DNA of 64,000 nt, taken from the NCBI GenBank assembly GCA_944389125.1, contig CALXLF010000002.1, forward strand, positions 164,588 to 228,587. The letters run 5' to 3'. Made by a program: the position numbers and the translations under genes. Positions 27 through 9,842 of this stretch are shown piece after piece. The DNA comes from an uncultured Clostridia bacterium (lineage in GTDB: Bacteria; Bacillota; Clostridia; TANB77; CAG-508). Position 1 is the first letter of the stretch. Each line of letters begins with the position of its first letter. The notes under the pieces are model-generated. The model was not told the DNA's origin. It saw only the letters and a program-made list of their open reading frames with translations, and searched no databases.

Positions 27-446
27 ATGAAAAATAAATTTGATTTTTTTCATTTGTATTATCCGCAAGTAATAGCTGATTCATGTAATTATTTTAAAAG
101 TATTAATGGAATTTATATTGATTTACCAGCTATTATTAAAGAAGAACATAAAAATGTTGAGTATGAAAATGCTGAAAAAATCAAATTTCAAGATTCTATA
201 TATTTAAAAGCAAATAAAAATACCAAAATAAAATTAAATATGCCAATTAAAAATCACGCTTTTTACTATGGTGTAATAAATATTAGTGATAATGATAATT
301 TATCTTTTTTATATTGGTTTAATATAAATAATAAAACTCAGTTTGAAAATATAAAACATTATTTAGAAAATAATTTAAAAATTGGTTTGATGAAAGGAAG
401 CAATGAAAAGTATTTAATTGCTGTTTGGTCAGGATATGAGAAGTGA
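27..446 (+). CDS. hypothetical protein (139 aa), no recognisable motif
   Basis: ORF with an upstream GGGAGAG RBS. The product is Asn/Lys-rich and overlaps the next ORF in an ATGA-type junction. Confidence 0.45.
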   Translation: MKNKFDFFHLYYPQVIADSCNYFKSINGIYIDLPAIIKEEHKNVEYENAEKIKFQDSIYLKANKNTKIKLNMPIKNHAFYYGVINISDNDNLSFLYWFNINNKTQFENIKHYLENNLKIGLMKGSNEKYLIAVWSGYEK

Positions 447-1593
447 AATAGAAAAATACATTTATCCAAATTATTTTAGTAAAGGATATCCACTTTTAAC
501 ACCAGAGATTAATGATATATGGGCTGATATATTAAATATTTTAATAGAATGTTTTGAAAAAGAGTTTAAAGATATAAAAATAGTAAATACATTACCATTA
601 ACTTATGATATAAATTTCTTATCTAAATTTTATGGAAAATATTTCGATAAAATTGAAGAAATGATTCCAAGATATAAAAAAGATGATAATAAAGAAAAAG
701 CTTTACTTACAGATAAATTACCTGTAGTAGTAAATTATATTAATAATAAAAAAATAGATAATTTGATATCAACATATACAGTTGTTAGACCAAGAAGTTT
801 TGGACTTAGAACATATCTTTACGAGGAATTTATTAGATATTTTCAGTTAATTATTTCTACAGATAAACTTGAAAAAAAAGAGTTTACACAAAAAATAAAA
901 AGTTCATTAGAAGAATTTTTTAGAAAAATAAATTTAGAAGTGATTTTAGCTGGACGTATTTCAGAATCTTATTATAGTAATAAAAGTACATTTTTTTCTA
1001 TATGGTTGGATGATAGAATTACTGATATTTTACAATGTGGACTATTGAGGGAAAATGTTGTAAATTCAATATTTACATCAAGTAAAAAGACAAGATTTGT
1101 AATGGATATTGGAGGCTCTCAACGTTTAATTACAGCATGGATTTATGCTAATTCTGATAAATTAGGTTTAAAATTTCCAAAGGCTATGAGACAATATGAT
1201 ATATTACTTGAAGTTAAGAATTCAACAGAGTTTAGTAAAAAAATTATAAATTATTGTAAAGAAAATAAAATTAGGGTTTTATTTGATCAATCTTTAGGAA
1301 AGAAAAAAATAAATAAAATAAGAAATTTAGGGTATAGCCAAAGTGTTGATATTCTATTGATTCAAAGAAATAGAGATGGTAAAGAATTTTATGATGTTTT
1401 TTATCGAAATGGAGACAAAAGACTAATTAGTAATATAAATGAACTTAAAGACTGTTATAATAATTATGAAGATATATTTTTGATTAATCAGAAAAAAATA
1501 ATAAAAAAACATATTAATAATCAAAAAATACATCCATCTACATATTTTGGTGATTTACCAGTTATGGATGATAATTTGTTTAAGGAGAATTAA
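436..1593 (+). CDS. hypothetical protein (~386 aa); ATG at 436 is the likely start, TTG at 418 is possible
   Basis: Long ORF ending 1 nt before gap. It has no similarity I can recognise and is not CggR-like despite its position upstream of gap. Confidence 0.5.
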   Translation: MRSEIEKYIYPNYFSKGYPLLTPEINDIWADILNILIECFEKEFKDIKIVNTLPLTYDINFLSKFYGKYFDKIEEMIPRYKKDDNKEKALLTDKLPVVVNYINNKKIDNLISTYTVVRPRSFGLRTYLYEEFIRYFQLIISTDKLEKKEFTQKIKSSLEEFFRKINLEVILAGRISESYYSNKSTFFSIWLDDRITDILQCGLLRENVVNSIFTSSKKTRFVMDIGGSQRLITAWIYANSDKLGLKFPKAMRQYDILLEVKNSTEFSKKIINYCKENKIRVLFDQSLGKKKINKIRNLGYSQSVDILLIQRNRDGKEFYDVFYRNGDKRLISNINELKDCYNNYEDIFLINQKKIIKKHINNQKIHPSTYFGDLPVMDDNLFKEN

Positions 1594-2622
1594 ATGAATA
1601 AAAAAATTAAAATCGGAATTAATGGATTTGGGAGAATTGGTAGTCTTATTTTCAGAAGGGCAGTAAAAGATGAAAATGTAGAAGTCGTCGGAATAAATGA
1701 TCCTAATATACCAATTGATTATATGTGCCATTTAATGAAATATGATTCAGCACATGGTATTTTTAATGAAAATATAAAACTTTTAGATGGAAAAATACAA
1801 GTAAATGACAGTGAAATTAAAATTTTTTCAGAAAATAATCCTAAAGATATTGATTGGAAAAGTTGTGGAGCTGAATATATAGCTGAAGCTTCTGGAAAAT
1901 TTGATAATATAGAAGGCTCATCATTACATTTTAATGGTGGAGCAAAAAAAGTAGTTATAACTGCTCCATCAAAAGATGCTCCTATGTTTGTTATGGGAGT
2001 TAACCAAAAAGAATATAAGAAAGGAACTAAAATAATTTCTAATTCATCATGTATTACCAATTGTTTAGCTCCTCTTGCAAAAGTAATAAATGATAATTTT
2101 GGGATAGAAGAGGCAATTATGACATCAGTTCATTCTGCAACTGGTGTTCAAAATGTAGTTGATGGAATTATGTATGAAGATTGGAGAGCTGGAAGAGCTG
2201 TTTTAAATAATATTATACAAACTCCAACTTATTCAGCAGAAACAGTTGGTAGGGTGATTCCAGAACTAGATGGAAAACTTCTGGGAACGGAATTTAGAGT
2301 ACCCACATTAGATGTATCTGCAATAGATGTCACAATTAAATTAAAAAAGGAAACAACTTATGAAGATATAAAAAAAGCAATGAAAGATGCTTCTGATAGT
2401 AGTGAGTTTAAAGACATTATTGAATATACAGAAGAGAAAGTTGTTTCATCAGATTTTGTTGGTGATATACATACATCAATATTTGATGCCAGTGCCGGAA
2501 TAATGATGTCACCTAAATTTGTAAAGCTTATCGCTTGGTATGATAATGAATGGAGCTATGCTTGCAAAGTAATTGATTTAATGAAATATGTTTATAAAGT
2601 TGATGAAGGAGGAAATAAATAA
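1594..2622 (+). CDS. gap: glyceraldehyde-3-phosphate dehydrogenase
   Basis: N-terminal INGFGRIGS Rossmann motif, the active-site [10 protein letters not shown] (variant of SSCTTNC) and the C-terminal WYDNEW motif. Length is 342 aa. Confidence 0.95.
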
Positions 2623-5066
2623 TGAGATATTCTAAAGAGGTTGATAGAAAATGGCAAAAAAGATGGAAAGAATCAGGATTATATAAATTTGATATTAGTA
2701 ATCTTGATAAAAAGTTTTATTCATTGGAAATGTTTTCATATCCATCAGGAGCAAGATTACATTTAGGACATTGGTTTAATTTTGCACCATCAGATTCATT
2801 TGCTAGATTTAAAAGTATGCAAGGATATAATGTTTTTCATCCTATGGGATTTGATGCTTTTGGATTACCTGCTGAGAATTATGCTATAAAAACAGGTATT
2901 CATCCAGAAGAATCAACTTTAAAAAATATAGAAACAATGAAAAGACAATTAGAAGAAATGGGAGCTAATTACGATTGGAATTATTCTGTTGAAACTTGTA
3001 TGCCAGATTATTATAAATGGACTCAATGGATATTCTTAAAACTATTTGAAAAAGGCCTTGCTTATAAAAAAGAAGCACCTGTTAATTGGTGCAAAAGTTG
3101 TAATACAGTATTAGCAAATGAACAAGTTGTAAATGGAGAATGTGAAAGATGTGGCACTATAGTAGAAAGAAGGAAAATGTCTCAATGGTTTTTTAAAATT
3201 ACTGATTATGCAGAAGAGTTATTAGAAGGATTAAAAGATTTAGATTGGCCTGAATCAACCAAAAAGGTTCAAGCAAATTGGATAGGTCGTTCTGAAGGAG
3301 CAGAAGTAAAATTTAAGATTGAAGGAAGTAAAGATGAATATTTAACAGCTTTTACAACAAGAGTTGATACATTAAATGGAGTAACATATGTTGTTATAGC
3401 TCCTGAAAGTGATATAACTTTAAAATTAACGAAACCTGAATATCTTGATGCTGTAAATAAGTACAGAGAACAAACTGCAAAAGCTTCTGATATAGAAAGA
3501 ATGTCAACCGAAAGAGAAAAAACTGGAGTATTTACAGGTTCTTATGTAATTAATCCAATTAATGGAGAAAGAGTTCCTCTTTGGGTATCTGATTATGTAA
3601 TTGAAGGTTATGGAACAGGTGTAGTTATGGCTGTTCCAGCACATGATGAAAGAGATTATGAATTTGCTAAAAAATATAATTTGAAAATAAAAGAAGTTAT
3701 AAAACCTGTAGATGGAAATGCGGAATTACCATATACTGACTATGGAATATTAATTAATAGTGGAGAATTTAATGGATTAACAAGTGCTGAAGCTAAAAAG
3801 AAAATTGTTGAAAAATTGAGTAAAACAAATGAAGGTAAACAAACAGTAAATTATAGATTAAAAGATTGGTTAGTATCAAGACAAAGATATTGGGGAGCAC
3901 CAATTCCTATTATATATTGTCCTGATTGTGGAATTGTACCTGTACCAGAAAAAGATTTGCCAGTATTATTACCTCATGATGTTGAATTTAGACCTGATGG
4001 TGAATCACCATTAAGAAAATCAAAAGAGTTTATGCATTGTAAATGTCCAAAATGTAACAAAGATGCTATGAGAGAATCTGATACTTTAGATACTTTTGTA
4101 GATTCAAGTTTCTACTTTTTAAGATATCCTGATGCTAGAAATTCTGAAAAAATATGGGATAAAGAGATAGTTGATAAGATTATGCCAGTTGATGTTTATG
4201 TTGGAGGTAAGGAACATGCTACAATGCATCTTATATATGCTAGATTTATGACAAAAGCATTAAGAGATATGGGATATGTAGACTGTGATGAACCTTTTAA
4301 GAAAATGGTTCATCAAGGAATGATTTTAGGTCCAGATGGTAATAAAATGAGTAAATCAAAAGGAAATACAGTTGCTCCTGATCCTTATGTTGACAAATAT
4401 GGTTCAGATACATTTAGAATGTATATTATGTTTGGATTTTCTTTTACAGAGGGTGGTCCTTGGAAAGATGAAGGAATACAAGCTATTGTTAAATATTTAA
4501 CTAGAGTAGAAAATTTAGCAGATAGAATACTTAATAATAAATATAAAACTAAAAATACGATAGATGATGAAGAAAAAGAATTAATTTATGTAAAAAATAG
4601 AACTATTAAAGCAATGGAAGCAGATATAGATAGATTTCAATTTAATACAGCAATAGCACGTTCTATGGAGTTTATAAATGAAATGGTAAAATATGAACAA
4701 TTACCAATAGTAAATGAGAAGCTACTTAGAGAATCATTTGAAACATATATCACTCTTATTTCTCCATTAGCTCCACATTTTTCTGAAGAAATTTGGGAAC
4801 AATTTGGACATACTGAATCTGTTCACAAAGAATTATGGCCAAAATATGATGAAAAAGAAATCGCTAAATATCAAATTAATTTGCCAATTCAAATTAATGG
4901 AAAACTTAAAACTGTAATAAAAACTAATAGAGAAGCAACAAAAGAGGATGTTAAAGAAGCAATAAAAGATGTTCCAACAATAGTACAAGCTTTAAAGAAT
5001 TTTGAAATAAAAGATGAAATATTTGTACCTCAAAAAATATTTAATATTGTTGGAAAAAAGAAATAA
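2622..5066 (+). CDS. leuS: leucyl-tRNA synthetase (native-composition copy)
   Basis: 814 aa with the HLGHWFNF class-I HIGH-type motif, a KMSKSKGN motif and CP1 editing-domain length. The start overlaps the gap stop (TAATGA). Confidence 0.95.
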
Positions 5067-5127: not shown

Positions 5128-7545
5128 TCATCTTACAACAAAGTTGATGATACGTCGAGGAACGTAAACCACTCTTTGAATGGTTTTACCGTTCAACTTG
5201 TGTGTAACATACTCTTGCGCAATGGCTTCAGCTTCAGACTGGGTGGCATTGGGATCAATTTCTATTTTGGCAATAGTTTTTCCGTTCATTTGAACAGGAA
5301 TCTCGATTTTGTCAGATGCCATTTTGTCTTTATCAGCTTTAGGCCAATGACCGGTTATAAAGATACTCTGACTATGTCCAAGCTTTTGCCAGTATTCTTC
5401 CGCTGTATGTGGAGCACTTGGTGCCATAAGACAAGCCAGTATTTCCATGACAGATGTGAGAACTTTAGAATTTCTTCCTGTGTCCAAATATCTGCCAATT
5501 TGGTTGGAGAGTTCCATCATCTTAGCAATCGCAGTATTGAATTGGAAGACCTCAAAATCACGAGTGATTTTATCAATCGCAATGTTCATAAATTTTTCGA
5601 GATCTGCTTCTTCTTTACCATACAAGTCTGAAAACTCTTTGATGGCAAAGTACCTGTTATAGTACCGATCAATTCGTTTAAAGTACTTGTTGATTGCTTC
5701 GAGCCCACTATCTGACCATGGGCCACCTTCCGTGTATTTGAATCCGAACATCAGGTATGTGCGAAATACATCGCTACCATACTTTTCTACATATTCATCT
5801 GGAGAAACTGTATTACCTTTAGATTTACTCATCTTCTGGCCGTCAGCTCCGAGAATCATACCCTGATGTATAAGCCTTTGAAATGGCTCATTAATGTCCA
5901 AATATCCTGCGTCGCGAAGAGCTTTGGTTACAAATCTGGAATAGATCAGGTGCATACAGCTGTGTTCAGCACCACCAACGTACATATCCACAGGGAGCAT
6001 TTTATTGACAATATCCTTGTCAAATGCTTTTTTGGAATTCCGCGCATCGGGATAACGAAGCTGATACCAAGAGGAACACATAAATGTATCCATAGTATCT
6101 ACTTCTCGACGTGCTTTTTTACCACAGCATGGACATGTTGTTTCTACAAATTCGCGACATTTCGCAAGAGGAGACTCTCCAGTTGGTGAAAACTCAACAT
6201 CATAGGGGAGTTCAACCGGCAAATCCTTTTCGGGGACTGGTACGATTCCACAATTATCACAATAGATAATTGGAATTGGAGCACCCCAGTATCTCTGACG
6301 TGAGATAAGCCAATCTCTCAGCCTGTAAGATATTGCTTTTCCACCGCAGTTTTTCTGCTCCAAGAAAGTGTTGATGGTTTCCTTGGCTTGGGTTGCTGTC
6401 ATGCCATTGAGGAAATCAGAATTAATCATCATTCCATCTTTGCCAATATAGACCTTTTCAGAATCATTTCCATTTGAAATAACAGTGATGATTTCGAGGT
6501 CATGTTTTTTAGCAAATTCGTAGTCTTTTTCGTCATGTGCTGGAACAGCCATAGCAATTCCAGTCCCATAACTTTCAATGATGTAATCAGCTACCCAAAT
6601 GGGAATTTTCTTCCCAGTTACAGGATTGATAGCAAATGCACCAGTGAAGACACCAGTTTTTTCGTGCTTTGTTGACTGCCTTTCAATTTCAGTCAGATAT
6701 TCAGCTTGTTTTACATAGACATTAACATCCTCCTTAAACTCGTCAGTAACAATGTCTTCCAAAGCATCATGCTCAGGAGCAATAAGAAGAGCAGTACTGC
6801 CAAATACCATTTCTGGTTTGTCAGTGAAGACTTCGAGTTCTTTACCATTTTCAGTTTTGAAAATGATTTTTGACCCCTCAGTTTTACCAATCCATGCCCT
6901 TTGCATAGCTTTTGTCTTTTCTGGCCAATCAAGATGGTTCAGGCCTTCGATGAGTTCTTCTGCATAATCCGTGATTTTCAGAAACCACTGAGACATTTTT
7001 TTTGTGTGTACTTCAGTTCCACACCGTTCGCAGCAGCCATCTTTGACCTGTTCTCTAGCCAGAACGGTTTTGCATGATGGACACCAGTTTGCTGGAGCAG
7101 ACTTTTTATATGCAAGCCCCATTTTGTAGAGCTGCAGAAATACCCATTGTGTCCATTTGTAGTATTCTGGATCACAAGTGATGATTTCTTTACTCCAATC
7201 AAACATTCCGCCCATGTCATCAAGCTGGCGTTTCATGACAGCAATATTGTGATAAGTGCTGTTTTTTGGATGTACTCCTGTCTTGATAGCATAGTTTTCT
7301 GCCGGCAGTCCAAACGCGTCAAATCCCATAGGCTGAAATACAGCATATCCTTGAAGACGTTTGAATCTAGCCCAGCTATCAACTAGGCCAAAGTTGAACC
7401 AGTGCCCCAAATGAAGCTTGGCTCCTGACGGATACGAAAACATTTCCATGACATAGAGTTTCCGCTTGATGTTGCTTTCATGGAAAGTAGCAATGCCAAG
7501 CTCTTTCCATTTAGCTTGCCAAAGCCTTTCTTTTTCCAAGTTCAT
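5128..7545 (-). CDS. leuS: leucyl-tRNA synthetase, second copy with markedly higher G+C (probable horizontal acquisition)
   Basis: 805 aa and full length, with HLGHWFNF and KMSKSKGN motifs. By eye it is about two-thirds identical to the first copy over the N-terminal 230 aa. GC is visibly about 40-45% versus under 30% for the neighbours, and the many spurious antisense ORFs are typical of GC-richer DNA. The start has an AAAGGAGAG RBS. Confidence 0.9.
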   Translation of the reverse strand: MNLEKERLWQAKWKELGIATFHESNIKRKLYVMEMFSYPSGAKLHLGHWFNFGLVDSWARFKRLQGYAVFQPMGFDAFGLPAENYAIKTGVHPKNSTYHNIAVMKRQLDDMGGMFDWSKEIITCDPEYYKWTQWVFLQLYKMGLAYKKSAPANWCPSCKTVLAREQVKDGCCERCGTEVHTKKMSQWFLKITDYAEELIEGLNHLDWPEKTKAMQRAWIGKTEGSKIIFKTENGKELEVFTDKPEMVFGSTALLIAPEHDALEDIVTDEFKEDVNVYVKQAEYLTEIERQSTKHEKTGVFTGAFAINPVTGKKIPIWVADYIIESYGTGIAMAVPAHDEKDYEFAKKHDLEIITVISNGNDSEKVYIGKDGMMINSDFLNGMTATQAKETINTFLEQKNCGGKAISYRLRDWLISRQRYWGAPIPIIYCDNCGIVPVPEKDLPVELPYDVEFSPTGESPLAKCREFVETTCPCCGKKARREVDTMDTFMCSSWYQLRYPDARNSKKAFDKDIVNKMLPVDMYVGGAEHSCMHLIYSRFVTKALRDAGYLDINEPFQRLIHQGMILGADGQKMSKSKGNTVSPDEYVEKYGSDVFRTYLMFGFKYTEGGPWSDSGLEAINKYFKRIDRYYNRYFAIKEFSDLYGKEEADLEKFMNIAIDKITRDFEVFQFNTAIAKMMELSNQIGRYLDTGRNSKVLTSVMEILACLMAPSAPHTAEEYWQKLGHSQSIFITGHWPKADKDKMASDKIEIPVQMNGKTIAKIEIDPNATQSEAEAIAQEYVTHKLNGKTIQRVVYVPRRIINFVVR

Positions 7546-7745
7546 ATGGACTCTCCTTTCTGTAGTCTGTAAACTGTGATGTGATAGAGTATGTTAAAAT
7601 AAACAAGTTAGTTTTCTCTCCTTCCTTAAGTATTTGTCTCTACACTAAGAGACTTTTCAACATTGTTTATTTAACAATCATATTATAGCATATGAAAAGT
7701 TATTACGTCAACTTGATACAACTGCATTTTTGTGATTTTTCATTG

Positions 7746-7785
7746 ACAATTACGCTATTTTGTGATATGTATAATAAAACTAATA
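7746..7785 (+). promoter_or_regulatory. putative sigma-A promoter for the asnA-like gene
   Basis: TTGACA, a 17-nt spacer, then TATGTATAAT (TG-extended -10). Confidence 0.3.
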
Positions 7786-7902
7786 TAGCGAACTATTATA
7801 TATATAATATAATAGGATACAAATTAATTACATAGCTTCGATAAACTGCACTATATAGGTTTTTATAGTGCTTTTATTCATTTTGATAAGGAGGGATTGA
7901 TG

Positions 7903-8916
7903 ATGGAAAGAATTAAACCAACAGGTTCATGGAAAAAATTAGATGATCATTTTTTAAGAGCAATTAGTGATCCATGGTATAAGTGTTTGGTAAACTTAGA
8001 AAATTTGATTTCAGAGTATACATTTCTTTTTTATATGAAAAAAGGAATTAAAACTATGCATCTACCTATAACAACAGGTTCAATATCTAGCCCTATGGGA
8101 CTTGGAAGTGATTCATTACCTGTAAAAATAAATTTGTCAGGGTGTGATACATATTTAGCAGATTCTATGCAATTTGCTTTAGAATATGGATGTAGATTTT
8201 TTGAAAATGGAACTTGGTATATAATGCCATCTTTTAGAGGAGAGGGAGAAGATGCAAGACATTTAAGTCAATTTTATCATAGTGAAGCTGAGATTCCTGG
8301 AACACTTGATGATGTTATAAAATTAATTGAAGAGTATTTAAAATTTTTGTGTGAAAATATTTTAAAAGAATATAAAGATGAGATTATTGAAATAGCCGGA
8401 ACAACTGAGCATATTGAGAAATTAATAAATTTAAAAGAAATCCCTAGAATTACATTTGAAGAAGCTGTTAAAATGTTAAATGATGACCCAAAATATATTG
8501 AACATAGTGAATATGGATTTAGAAATATTACAAGAATTGGTGAGACAGTATTATTGAAAAAATTTGGAGGATTTGTATGGCTTACTAATTTTGATAAAAT
8601 GGCAGTTCCATTTTATCAAGCACAGACTGAGGATAAAAAATATGCTAAAAATGCAGATTTACTTATGGGTATTGGAGAAACTGTTGGATGTGGAGAACGT
8701 CATGAAACAGGAAATGAAGTAAAAAAAGCTTTAAAAGATCATAATGTAGATGAAAATGAATATAAATGGTATATTCAAATGAAAGACAAATTTCCATTAA
8801 AGACTTCAGGATTTGGAATGGGAATAGAAAGATTTATTTTATGGTTGACAAAACAAAATGATATAAGAGATTGCCAATTATTGCCTAGATTTTTAGGAAA
8901 AAATGTTATACCATAA
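7903..8916 (+). CDS. AsnA-like amino acid-AMP ligase / asparaginyl-tRNA synthetase paralog lacking an anticodon-binding domain (archaeal-type asparagine synthetase family)
   Basis: Class II aaRS catalytic-core motifs are present: FRGEGEDARHLSQFYHSEAE (motif 2-like), GIGETVGCGERHE, and the C-terminal SGFGMGIERFILWLTKQNDIRDCQLLPRFLG (motif 3: GxGxGxER ... PR). There is no N-terminal OB or anticodon domain. TTG at 7897 or ATG at 7900/7903 are possible starts after an AAGGAGGG RBS. Confidence 0.7.
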   Translation: MERIKPTGSWKKLDDHFLRAISDPWYKCLVNLENLISEYTFLFYMKKGIKTMHLPITTGSISSPMGLGSDSLPVKINLSGCDTYLADSMQFALEYGCRFFENGTWYIMPSFRGEGEDARHLSQFYHSEAEIPGTLDDVIKLIEEYLKFLCENILKEYKDEIIEIAGTTEHIEKLINLKEIPRITFEEAVKMLNDDPKYIEHSEYGFRNITRIGETVLLKKFGGFVWLTNFDKMAVPFYQAQTEDKKYAKNADLLMGIGETVGCGERHETGNEVKKALKDHNVDENEYKWYIQMKDKFPLKTSGFGMGIERFILWLTKQNDIRDCQLLPRFLGKNVIP

Positions 8917-8949
8917 CATATACAAATTAATTTTATAAGGAAGGTTTTA

Positions 8950-9717
8950 ATGAATAAGAACAATATTCCAATTTTAGAATTTGATGAAGATAAAAATGCA
9001 ATTATTAGTCCAGATGATTTTAATAAGGATATCCCTAGGATTCAAGAAAAATGTATATTATGTTTTTTTAATGAAATTATAGATGAACTTGAAAGGCAAG
9101 GAAAAATTAGACATATAACAGAATTGCATTCTCCTTTAGGAAGTCATAAAATTTATGAGATGACATATAATGATGTATCAATAAATGTATTCAACCCAGG
9201 TCTTGGTGGACCAATGGCAGGAGGTTTTGTTGATGAATTAATTGGACTTGGAGTTAAAAATTTTATGGCTTGTGGAGGAGCTGGAGTTTTAATAGATGAA
9301 ATAGAGATGGGAACATTAATCATACCAACATCAGCTGTAAGAGATGAGGGTTTGTCTTATCATTATTTTCCAGCAAATCAAGATATATTTTTGAAAAATG
9401 AAGTTTATAATAAGATCGAATCTGTTTTAAATGAAAATGAAATAAAATTTTTAAAAGGAAAGACTTGGACTACAGATGCAATTTATAGAGAGACTAAAAC
9501 TAAAATTCAAAATAGAAAAAAACAAGGATGTATATGTGTTGAAATGGAGTTTGCCAGTATGCTTTCAGTAGCATTATTTAGAAATGTAAATTTTGGTCAG
9601 TTATTATATGGTGGAGATAGTGTTGATGGAGGTATTTGGAAATATAGAGATTGGTTGAAAAATGAAAGTGTTCAAATGAAAATGTTTTGGCTTTGTGCCG
9701 ATATTTTAACAAAATAA
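8950..9717 (+). CDS. PNP/UDP-1 family nucleoside phosphorylase-like protein
   Basis: Motifs NPGLGGPMAGG, MACGGAGVL, PTSAVRDEGLSYHY and VEMEFASM resemble the phosphate/ribose-binding and MEAA motifs of DeoD/Udp-type phosphorylases. Length is 255 aa. Confidence 0.65.
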   Translation: MNKNNIPILEFDEDKNAIISPDDFNKDIPRIQEKCILCFFNEIIDELERQGKIRHITELHSPLGSHKIYEMTYNDVSINVFNPGLGGPMAGGFVDELIGLGVKNFMACGGAGVLIDEIEMGTLIIPTSAVRDEGLSYHYFPANQDIFLKNEVYNKIESVLNENEIKFLKGKTWTTDAIYRETKTKIQNRKKQGCICVEMEFASMLSVALFRNVNFGQLLYGGDSVDGGIWKYRDWLKNESVQMKMFWLCADILTK

Positions 9718-9726
9718 AGTAATAAA

Positions 9727-9758
9727 ATAGAGCATTAAAATTGCTCTATTTTTGTTTG
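9727..9758 (+). terminator. rho-independent terminator
   Basis: ATAGAGC ... GCTCTAT hairpin followed by TTTTTGTTT. Confidence 0.7.
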
Positions 9759-9842
9759 AATTTTATCTTGACTTTTGGCTTAAAACATGTGATAATTTTT
9801 TCGTAGATTGATTTTTATATGTTTAATTAGGAGAAAAGTGCT

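Follow-up and report, generated by a model that had tools for sequence, protein, structure and literature searches.

Agrocin 84 is a leucyl-adenylate mimic that poisons leucyl-tRNA synthetase (LeuRS), and it is the only characterised compound of its class, with a biosynthetic pathway that is still to be solved (PMC8323819). The agn cluster for agrocin 84/TM84, carried by plasmid pAgK84 of Rhizobium rhizogenes K84, includes AgnA, a truncated homologue of asparaginyl-tRNA synthetase (AsnRS) without the anticodon-binding domain, which was proposed to couple the nucleotide of agrocin 84 with its leucine-like pentanamide, and AgnB2, the LeuRS of the cluster, which confers self-immunity (PMC8323819, PMC4392301). 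Two adjacent genes at positions 7903 to 9717 of a 64,000-nucleotide stretch of DNA from an uncultured Clostridia bacterium (the whole stretch is called the window below) were studied here; the first encodes an AgnA-like protein and the second an enzyme with the fold of purine nucleoside phosphorylases (PNP-fold). With a probability that we put at roughly 70%, the pair is part of a cluster for a TM84-like leucyl-adenylate mimic, in which a LeuRS copy would give self-immunity.

In the agn cluster a conserved 420-bp open reading frame (ORF), agnC0, precedes agnC1, whose product has remote similarity to prolyl-tRNA synthetase (ProRS), and achY is required for agrocin 84 production (PMC8323819). 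Putative agrocin-84-like clusters were reported in Ensifer sp. ENS09 and in Actinobacteria (Travin, Severinov and Dubiley 2021, PMC8323819). Their definition rested on homologues of AgnC1 and AgnC0 alongside other agn genes and an aminoacyl-tRNA synthetase (aaRS) possibly for immunity, which is methionyl-tRNA synthetase (MetRS) in most of the actinobacterial clusters; neither a Firmicute or gammaproteobacterial member nor a PNP-fold gene was mentioned in that account. It was also described that S66 peptidase (MccF) and MccE-type GNAT detoxify aminoacyl-nucleotide antibiotics (PMC8323819). No later paper on agrocin-84-like clusters was found in the searchable literature, which seems to contain no description of the clusters of Clostridia and Enterobacterales, of their association with a PNP-fold gene or of how broad the range of AgnA-centred clusters is.

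The AgnA-like gene

By its sequence, the first gene is a full-length AgnA homologue and no demonstrable asparagine synthetase. The predicted protein matched Pfam tRNA-synt_2 (1.7e-34, residues 30-329), with tRNA-synt_2d sub-threshold, and had no match to any further Pfam family, anticodon-binding domains included; the tblastn alignment with E. coli AsnRS covered only residues 136-459 of the latter, i.e., its catalytic core. The identity with AgnA, the "agrocin 84 synthetase" of pAgK84, was 40.3% over 99% of the length (residues 4-337), with E-values of 9e-82 in tblastn against the plasmid collection and 8e-95 in BLASTP, and 82 columns were invariant over 18 members of the AgnA family, AgnA included. 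The closest relatives head clusters in other genomes and are 69-75% identical (72-75% for the first genes of the agn-like clusters at L001 and L005; loci are given here by their L numbers).

Motifs 2 and 3 of the class-II synthetases, FRGE, the RHLxxF signature of AsnRS, GERH, GFGMGIER and the Arg of GxGER were all kept in the AgnA-like protein. In the alignment with E. coli AsnRS, the amino-acid loop "EGAGE" was replaced by "SPMGLGSDS", which is conserved across the AgnA-like family, while the Arg of GGSxR was kept as GCGER, the Gln of GGSQRE was changed to Glu and the His before motif 3 to Thr. The best NCBIfam models were those of the archaeal-type "asparagine synthetase A" (PRK06462), all of which scored below cut-off, with 292 bits against 322 for NF005053, 260 against 389 for NF005055 and about 79 for NF005054 and NF005052 (cut-offs 309 and 368). 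Among solved structures, AsnRS cores reached 99 bits, whereas the archaeal AS-AR (PDB 3p8t, 1nnh) reached 43 bits and matched in the C-terminal third only. The protein resembles both in having a class-IIb core that contains motifs 2 and 3 but lacks an anticodon-binding domain, and AsnRS cores also in the RHLxxF signature, but it differs from AS-AR in this weak similarity, the missed NCBIfam cut-offs and the gene-cluster context, and from AsnRS in the replaced amino-acid-binding loop. The E. coli-type AsnA (Pfam PF03590) gave no match with the protein, and apart from this gene no canonical AsnRS or aspartyl-tRNA synthetase (AspRS) was found in the window.

A preliminary description of this DNA had proposed two ORFs spaced by 33 nt, a class-II core followed by a PNP/UDP-1 fold, and coordinates and Pfam agree with it; the motifs that it listed were all found (FRGE, GFGMGIERF and LLPR in the first gene; GGAG, VRDEG and VEMEFA in the second). 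Its class-II core without an anticodon-binding domain was confirmed, but archaeal-type asparagine synthetase, one of the two identities that it had offered for this architecture, was not borne out, as the scores are below both NCBIfam cut-offs. Orthology to AsnA, which it had also considered, found no support either from Pfam AsnA, with no match, or from the NCBIfam asparagine synthetase models.

Gene content and order of the cluster

In related Clostridia the cluster has the order AgnA-like gene, methyltransferase, S66 peptidase, PNP-fold gene, short-chain dehydrogenase/reductase (SDR), two genes whose products have about 138 and about 386 aa, and LeuRS. The cluster recurs in at least three genomic surroundings (L001-L004, L005-L007 and L019), and in permuted order in L108. 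In BLASTP against pAgK84, the methyltransferase, which in both systems directly follows the AgnA gene, was the AgnB1 orthologue (48-50% identity, E 2e-90), the S66 peptidase matched the MccF-like AgnC5 (E 8e-42) and the SDR matched AgnC2 and AgnD3 (E 1e-25). Besides Clostridia, the recurring gene set was found in Xenorhabdus, Providencia and Rahnella, and the cluster, as recognised from its genes, is one of gut Clostridia and of insect- and plant-associated Enterobacterales. On a megaplasmid of Xenorhabdus bovienii it consists of the AgnA-like gene, methyltransferase, S66 peptidase, nucleoside phosphorylase, VOC, GloA, leuS, a ProRS-like gene and an MFS transporter, and it stands between recombinase genes, with such genes upstream of it.

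In the species of the window the order is methyltransferase, RlmN/Cfr-like radical S-adenosylmethionine (SAM) enzyme, C0, C1, gap, leuS1, leuS2 on the opposite strand, AgnA-like gene and PNP-fold gene, where C0 and C1 are the AgnC0-like and AgnC1-like genes (Table 1). The first two were seen in L008 and L010, near-identical strains of the same species, directly upstream of the position that corresponds to window position 1; the cluster of the window is therefore a rearranged, split version. In a comparison of the window with L008 (about 4% DNA divergence), dN/dS was 0.08 for the AgnA-like gene, 0.09 for the PNP-fold gene, 0.12 for C1, 0.24 for C0, 0.11 for leuS1 and 0.07 for leuS2, so all these genes are kept by purifying selection, and the acquisition of leuS2 is placed before the divergence of the window strain and L008.

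With the agn cluster of pAgK84, the cluster of the window species shares the truncated AsnRS paralogue at full length and 40% identity, a ProRS-fold protein preceded by a small ORF of about 139 aa, a LeuRS inside the cluster and SAM-dependent enzymes, and its Clostridial relatives also share the AgnB1-type methyltransferase, the MccF-like S66 peptidase and the SDR. Unlike pAgK84, the host is one of the low-GC gut Clostridia (the GC content of the window is about 25%), and the cluster lies on the chromosome, where a second leuS interrupts it. It adds the PNP-fold gene, the RlmN/Cfr-like radical SAM enzyme (upstream of position 1) and a glyceraldehyde-3-phosphate dehydrogenase (GAPDH); it has no homologues of AgnC4, AgnC6 and AgnC7, and BLAST found none of agnG and agnD/E/F (uptake moiety and export); no transporter gene is adjacent to the cluster.

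C0, C1 and the upstream genes

The window C0 had no Pfam match, and its family comprises 8 representatives in 1.84 billion proteins. It matches agnC0 in size (420 bp) and in its position before C1. In hhalign comparisons the window C0 family matched the C0 ORFs of related Clostridial clusters (probability 95%, E 3.3e-8), and these matched AgnC0 of pAgK84 (probability 86%, E 5e-6).

For the window C1 there was no Pfam or PDB sequence match, and only 7 homologues were present in an index of 5.8 billion proteins. Its AlphaFold2 (AF2) model had a pLDDT of 82.8 and a pTM of 0.85, and the top Foldseek matches in the PDB were all ProRS (1nj1, E 1.8e-21, TM-score 0.63). The C1 family aligned with AgnC1 over 231 colinear columns (hhalign E 2.3e-4) and with the ProRS-like protein of the Xenorhabdus cluster (hhalign E 1.6e-5). 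A BLASTP chain led from AgnC1 to L075 (Cellulomonas, 4.9e-15), from there to L027 (Clostridiales, 2.9e-12) and then to the window species (4.5e-26); when the window C1 was compared directly with AgnC1 or the plasmid collection, neither BLASTP nor tblastn gave a match, and the only AgnC1 homologues in the plasmid collection were the copies of pAgK84. Even between close relatives C1 is only about 27% identical.

The gap gene is packed between C1 and leuS1, with start and stop codons abutting or overlapping, away from a glycolytic operon. It was found at this place only in the species of the window, and its role in the cluster is uncertain. Other versions of the cluster have an SDR or a VOC/GloA pair in place of gap; it is a speculation that GAPDH, SDR and VOC/GloA could each deliver a 2-hydroxy acid. 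The upstream methyltransferase of the window species belongs to another family (comp3) than AgnB1, one that neighbours AgnA-like genes in 17 loci. The radical SAM protein keeps, by inspection, the equivalents of C118 and C355 of RlmN and the CxxxCxxC cluster; these retained Cys residues hint at C-methylation of an adenine, and the enzyme may act in this way on a small molecule instead of on rRNA.

The two LeuRS copies

Two types of LeuRS were distinguished. Type 1 includes leuS1 and the LeuRS of L005 and L019 (L019a), with a mutual identity of 65-70%; leuS1 itself is 65% identical to the LeuRS that end the clusters of L005 and L019 and 42% identical to AgnB2. Type 2 includes leuS2 and L019b, which are 63% identical to each other and about 55% identical to type 1. 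In the window, leuS1 and leuS2 are convergent and 54.5% identical. In L019, a Clostridium metagenome-assembled genome (MAG), both types stand in tandem at the end of the cluster (7163-13043), about 1 kb apart, and no T-box was found between them.

That the gene pair adjoins a foreign-looking leuS, as stated in the preliminary description, was confirmed by the GC content of leuS2 (40.9%; leuS1 and the two genes of the pair have 28-29%). The link between LeuRS and the cluster holds as well, but the LeuRS of the related clusters is of the native-GC leuS1 type and not of the foreign leuS2 type. Likewise, the earlier idea of an aminoacyl-nucleotide module linked to leuS was right in essence, except that the pair is not a self-contained two-enzyme module but one half of a larger cluster.

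LeuRS of the Firmicute type is without the LS domain, whose absence contributes to the resistance of AgnB2 (PMC5059758). As KMSKS is present in all copies and the LS domain is already missing, the resistance of either copy cannot be read from sequence. We consider leuS1, the type that travels with the cluster, as a candidate for the self-immunity copy or for the target.

Distribution of AgnA-like loci

In a scan of 185,579 species genomes, with one genome per species (GTDB representatives, among which the species of the window is not included), 338 AgnA-like loci of 48-75% identity were found, i.e., in about 0.2% of the species. The closest match was in an uncultured Clostridia MAG from chicken gut (75%), and the hosts included Clostridia, Bacilli, Streptomyces, Kitasatospora, Patescibacteria, Legionella, Providencia, Rahnella, Pseudoalteromonas and others. 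Such a sparse and patchy distribution is typical of accessory genes.

To count neighbours, 80 of the 338 species loci were taken and all ORFs of a total of 88 AgnA-like loci were clustered. An S66 peptidase, methyltransferase, aaRS-like, GNAT, ATP-grasp or AMP-binding partner was present within 10 kb in 68 of the 80 species loci (85%). Among the 88 loci, the most frequent neighbours were the S66 peptidase (48) and the AgnB1-type methyltransferase (34), followed by other methyltransferase families (17, 7 and 7), ATP-grasp ligase (16), a truncated protein like alanyl-tRNA synthetase (AlaRS) (13), LeuRS (10), PNP-fold, SDR, C1 and class-IIa aaRS (9 each), two families like histidyl-tRNA synthetase (HisRS) (9 and 7), AMP-binding (8) and GNAT (7). 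The S66 peptidase and GNAT counts recall microcin C immunity by MccF and MccE; unlike microcin C, the window species has neither S66 nor GNAT, and there is no MccB-type ThiF enzyme or precursor peptide.

Several loci (L015, L034-L036, L039-L059) combine the AgnA-like gene with truncated AlaRS-like, HisRS-like or class-IIa aaRS genes, and often add a full-length aaRS, S66, GNAT, ATP-grasp ligase or MFS. For example, a Peribacillus plasmid carries ATP-grasp, MFS, AlaRS, AlaRS-like, methyltransferase, AgnA-like and S66 genes. This suggests that the AgnA-like loci of other species are a cluster family aimed at different aaRS targets. The AgnA-like protein of the window is 57% identical to that of the AlaRS-type Peribacillus locus, 52% to that of the LeuRS-type Xenorhabdus cluster and 40% to AgnA. 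Because its similarity does not track the linked aaRS, and because C1 is so variable, we infer that AgnA carries out a common step and that the aaRS-like enzyme selects the amino-acid-like moiety.

The PNP-fold enzyme

The second protein matched Pfam PNP_UDP_1 (9.7e-29), and its AF2 model (pLDDT 92) showed a complete NP-I fold. The best Foldseek match was the hexameric 5'-methylthioadenosine phosphorylase (MTAP) of Sulfolobus (1jds, E 1.6e-17), followed by PNPs and uridine phosphorylases, with TM-scores of 0.74-0.77 to hexameric NP-I phosphorylases. No curated equivalog was reached, the best NCBIfam score being 64 bits for AMP nucleosidase (cut-off 264), with 60 against 280 for Udp and 43-50 against 230-338 for DeoD.

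Active-site residues were counted after the best 120 of 1,308 homologues had been aligned with DeoD, Udp, Mtn and Amn of E. coli; the N-terminal GDPxR region of this alignment was unreliable. In the ribose-binding Glu-Met-Glu, Met and the second Glu were present in 120/120 and the first Glu in 119/120; the purine-N7 Asp (DeoD D204, Mtn D197) was invariant (120/120). The position of the phosphate-binding Arg (DeoD R87, Udp R91) was Ala in 110/120 and that of the phosphate-binding Ser/Thr (DeoD S90, Udp T94) was Gly in 117/120. The Arg position is non-Arg in nucleosidases too, being Asn in Mtn and Met in Amn. The family is like the hexameric NP-I enzymes (Sulfolobus MTAP, DeoD-type PNP, uridine phosphorylase) in its fold, its Glu-Met-Glu and its purine-N7 Asp, and unlike them in the Ala/Gly that replace Arg87/Ser90, in its extra N-terminus and in the lack of an equivalog. 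From the kept Glu-Met-Glu and Asp and the NP-I fold, it is very likely that the substrate of the predicted enzyme is a purine nucleoside or nucleotide and that the N-glycosidic bond is where it acts. With the canonical Arg and Ser missing, cleavage independent of phosphate or an unusual substrate would be expected.

The N-terminal extension had been put at about 60 aa, which is overstated, the real extra N-terminus being about 20-30 aa. The Pfam match starts at residue 54, but there it is already at position 20 of the profile; in the model, the first beta-strand begins with residue 34, and the Foldseek alignments span 227-254 columns of the 255-residue query. A length of about 255 aa is typical among the best 120 homologues, and the extra N-terminus carries a conserved PILEFD motif.

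The PNP genes inside the clusters are 57-63% (L001, L005, L019) and 51% (L108) identical to the one in the window. Homologues of about 47% identity or less stand in unrelated contexts; the cluster therefore recruited its PNP-fold gene from a broader family of housekeeping-like character. A PNP-fold gene occurs in 9/88 AgnA-like loci, 8 of which carry LeuRS, and 8 of the 10 LeuRS-containing loci carry a PNP-fold gene, with pAgK84 and L027 as exceptions; none was found in the AlaRS-like, HisRS-like or GNAT loci among the 88. In place of the PNP gene, L027 and the related C1-type locus L028, where no LeuRS was seen, carry a radical SAM gene and one further conserved gene besides AgnC3-like and AgnC4-like genes.

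Tailoring or supply of a nucleoside moiety specific to this cluster subclass is ranked first among the possible roles of the enzyme, since its occurrence does not depend on the host taxon and is complementary to that of the type-I tailoring set. Removal of SAM by-products, i.e., 5'-methylthioadenosine (MTA), S-adenosylhomocysteine (SAH) and 5'-deoxyadenosine, is ranked second, and a self-protective nucleosidase third. Three observations had brought up the by-product role: the structure matches the Sulfolobus MTAP best, agrocin 84 depends on achY, and ahcY is present in the Bacillus pseudomycoides locus. It was not preferred, as the type-I clusters, which are rich in SAM enzymes, are without the gene, and as the Enterobacterales clusters have it though their hosts possess Mtn. 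In the B. pseudomycoides locus (L016, plasmid pBTZ_2), ahcY and a TauD-family fragment lie near methyltransferase, AgnA-like and ATP-grasp genes.

Proposed function of the cluster

In the mechanism that we propose, the product of the cluster would be an N-acyl phosphoramidate nucleotide like TM84, which mimics leucyl-adenylate but is not hydrolysable. C0 and the fast-evolving C1 with its ProRS fold would select and activate a leucine-like acid. The AgnA-like protein, as a tRNA-independent and ATP-using class-II core, would form the amide or phosphoramidate link to the nucleotide, a step that all clusters of this kind would share. Decoration of the product would fall to the methyltransferase and the radical SAM enzyme, the PNP-fold enzyme would act on the adenine nucleoside in the product or in a precursor by making or breaking its N-glycosidic bond, and the LeuRS copy that travels with the cluster would keep the producer alive.

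Several points weigh against this proposal. Agrocin 84 is the sole member of the family with a known product, established by genetics. BLAST found no homologue of the AgnB1-type methyltransferase, the S66 peptidase or the SDR in the window, and the first two are absent also from the upstream part in L010, while they are present in L001, L005, L019, L108 and L018. No exporter stands beside the Clostridial clusters, unlike pAgK84 (agnG) and Xenorhabdus (MFS). The KQSKS change of AgnB2 is absent, both LeuRS of the window having KMSKS, and the cluster LeuRS may be the sole LeuRS of the genome in L001 and L005. The PNP-fold gene had no pAgK84 counterpart in BLASTP, so its role is without precedent. 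Finally, the link between C1 and AgnC1 is remote, with a direct hhalign probability of 45%, and the window C0 family compared directly with AgnC0 was negative (hhalign E 0.35-0.75), so that C0 is connected by a two-step chain only.

More tentatively, and with odds that we would put somewhat below even, the AgnA-like gene could mark a large, undescribed, cross-phylum superfamily of antibiotic clusters for aminoacyl-AMP mimics, with the window as a branch of gut Clostridia that targets LeuRS. Such a superfamily may consist of a constant module (AgnA-like protein, methyltransferase and MccF-like S66), a swappable specificity enzyme, which may be the ProRS-fold C1 or a truncated AlaRS-like, HisRS-like or class-IIa-like protein, and a matching full-length aaRS immunity copy, which may be LeuRS, AlaRS, HisRS or others. 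If so, the PNP-fold enzyme would define a LeuRS-specific subclass in Clostridia and Enterobacterales, with a nucleoside built or remodelled in a way unlike agrocin 84, and the RlmN/Cfr-like enzyme would C-methylate adenine.

The compact relatives in gut Clostridia and Enterobacterales yield a minimal conserved set of AgnA, methyltransferase, C0, C1 and LeuRS, which PNP, SDR and S66 may accompany. Compact sets of 7-9 genes could be expressed heterologously, giving access to the enzymology of N-acyl phosphoramidates and to new LeuRS inhibitors. The widespread database name "asparagine synthetase A" is also corrected for a family that stands in contexts like biosynthetic gene clusters (BGCs) at about 85% of the loci examined. 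The presence of the cluster in gut bacteria also suggests that aaRS inhibitors take part in competition within the gut microbiome.

Alternative explanations

The alternative that survives best, although we consider it unlikely, is that the leucine-like, nucleotide-linked metabolite of the cluster is no exported antibiotic but, e.g., an intracellular regulator of LeuRS or translation, or that the locus is mainly an island for resistance to, or detoxification of, the LeuRS inhibitor of a competitor. The missing exporter of the Clostridial clusters and the possibly sole LeuRS of some genomes would be explained in this way, immunity-type genes (LeuRS copies, S66) are prominent, and the terminator-like hairpin in the leader of the gene pair (see below) suggests metabolic regulation. 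However, the Enterobacterales versions with MFS and an extra leuS, on a megaplasmid in Xenorhabdus, look like a typical producer cluster, and the species of the window lost S66 yet keeps AgnA, C0 and C1 under purifying selection.

There is a smaller chance that the locus is a decaying remnant split by leuS2, in which the original compound is no longer made and the pair is kept for an unrelated or reduced function. The S66, AgnB1-type methyltransferase and SDR genes missing from the 64-kb window, the gene of foreign GC content between the two halves and a gene order unlike that of all relatives fit with decay. On the other hand, the genes that remain are all intact and show purifying selection between strains at about 4% DNA divergence (dN/dS 0.07-0.24), the arrangement is kept in several independent metagenome assemblies, and genes were gained, namely a methyltransferase whose family occurs at 17 other AgnA-like loci and the RlmN/Cfr-like radical SAM enzyme.

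Ordinary metabolism, i.e., a tRNA-independent asparagine synthetase (AsnA/AS-AR) and a purine or uridine salvage phosphorylase that stand beside leuS by coincidence, a pairing also offered in the preliminary description, is very improbable: in its favour are the names of the top NCBIfam models and of homologues in public annotation ("asparagine synthetase A"), the retained ATP-binding motifs 2 and 3 and GxGER Arg of AsnRS/AspRS, and the occurrence of the PNP-fold family in housekeeping-looking contexts at about 47% identity, but both NCBIfam scores are under cut-off, the solved AS-AR are weakly similar, the "EGAGE" loop of AsnRS is replaced, AgnA is the closest characterised homologue, the PNP-fold protein is without the canonical phosphate Arg/Ser and reaches no DeoD, Udp or MTAP model, BGC-type partners stand at 85% of the species loci of a family that is rare and patchy across phyla, and the gene content with LeuRS is kept despite rearrangements.

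Transcription unit and other features of the window

Since a terminator follows the PNP-fold gene, the AgnA-like and PNP-fold genes form their own bicistronic unit (Table 1). A TTG at 7897 is an alternative start of the AgnA-like gene. Directly 5' of its ribosome-binding site, a terminator-like hairpin with a T-run was found at 7848-7871, and a comparable hairpin of different sequence precedes the AgnA-like gene of L005 (about 4970-5010), which suggests transcription attenuation in the leader of the operon. There was no Rfam match to a T-box or riboswitch in the window, nor in 7400-8000 at E <= 1, nor in L001, L005, L010, L018, L019 and L027, and a comparison of the two operon leaders and those of relatives gave only short matches at chance level.

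Table 1. Features of the split cluster, by position in the window (the last row by position in L010)
Feature	Position	Strand	Details
AgnC0-like small ORF (C0)	27-446	+	139 aa, 420 bp; overlaps start of C1 gene
AgnC1-like ProRS-fold protein (C1)	436-1593	+	385 aa; class-IIa aaRS paralogue
gap, type I GAPDH	1594-2622	+	Pfam Gp_dh_N, Gp_dh_C; TIGR01534 380 (cut-off 367)
leuS1, cluster-travelling LeuRS type	2622-5066	+	TIGR00396 1009 bits; GC 28.9%
leuS2, LeuRS of foreign composition between cluster halves	5128-7545	-	TIGR00396 955 bits; GC 40.9%
Divergent intergenic region	7546-7902	.	Promoter regions of leuS2 and of AgnA-like/PNP operon (promoter/terminator scan)
AgnA-like truncated AsnRS paralogue	7903-8916	+	337 aa from ATG 7903
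PNP-fold gene (NP-I, PNP_UDP_1, purine type)	8950-9717	+	255 aa
Terminator hairpin, Rho-independent type	9724-9752	+	11-bp stem then T-run, 3' of PNP-fold gene
Radical SAM enzyme, RlmN/Cfr-like	L010:5156-6019		224 bits (cut-off 290); about 68 N-terminal residues of family absent

Further along the window, a MiaB-like methylthiotransferase is apparently split into the ORFs 18598-19260, with UPF0004 and the N-terminal radical SAM part, and 19265-19834, with the C-terminal part; a frameshift, a pseudogene or a sequencing error are possible reasons. A Lys/Glu-rich protein of 677 aa (13379-15412) with no Pfam match is encoded between the recA region and trpS (15686-16696). Between the PNP-fold gene and recA there is a solitary substrate-binding protein of the SBP_bac_5 family (oligopeptide/nickel/opine type; 9843-11423) with an N-terminal membrane anchor, without permease or ATPase genes nearby, and the same arrangement was found in L008-L010.

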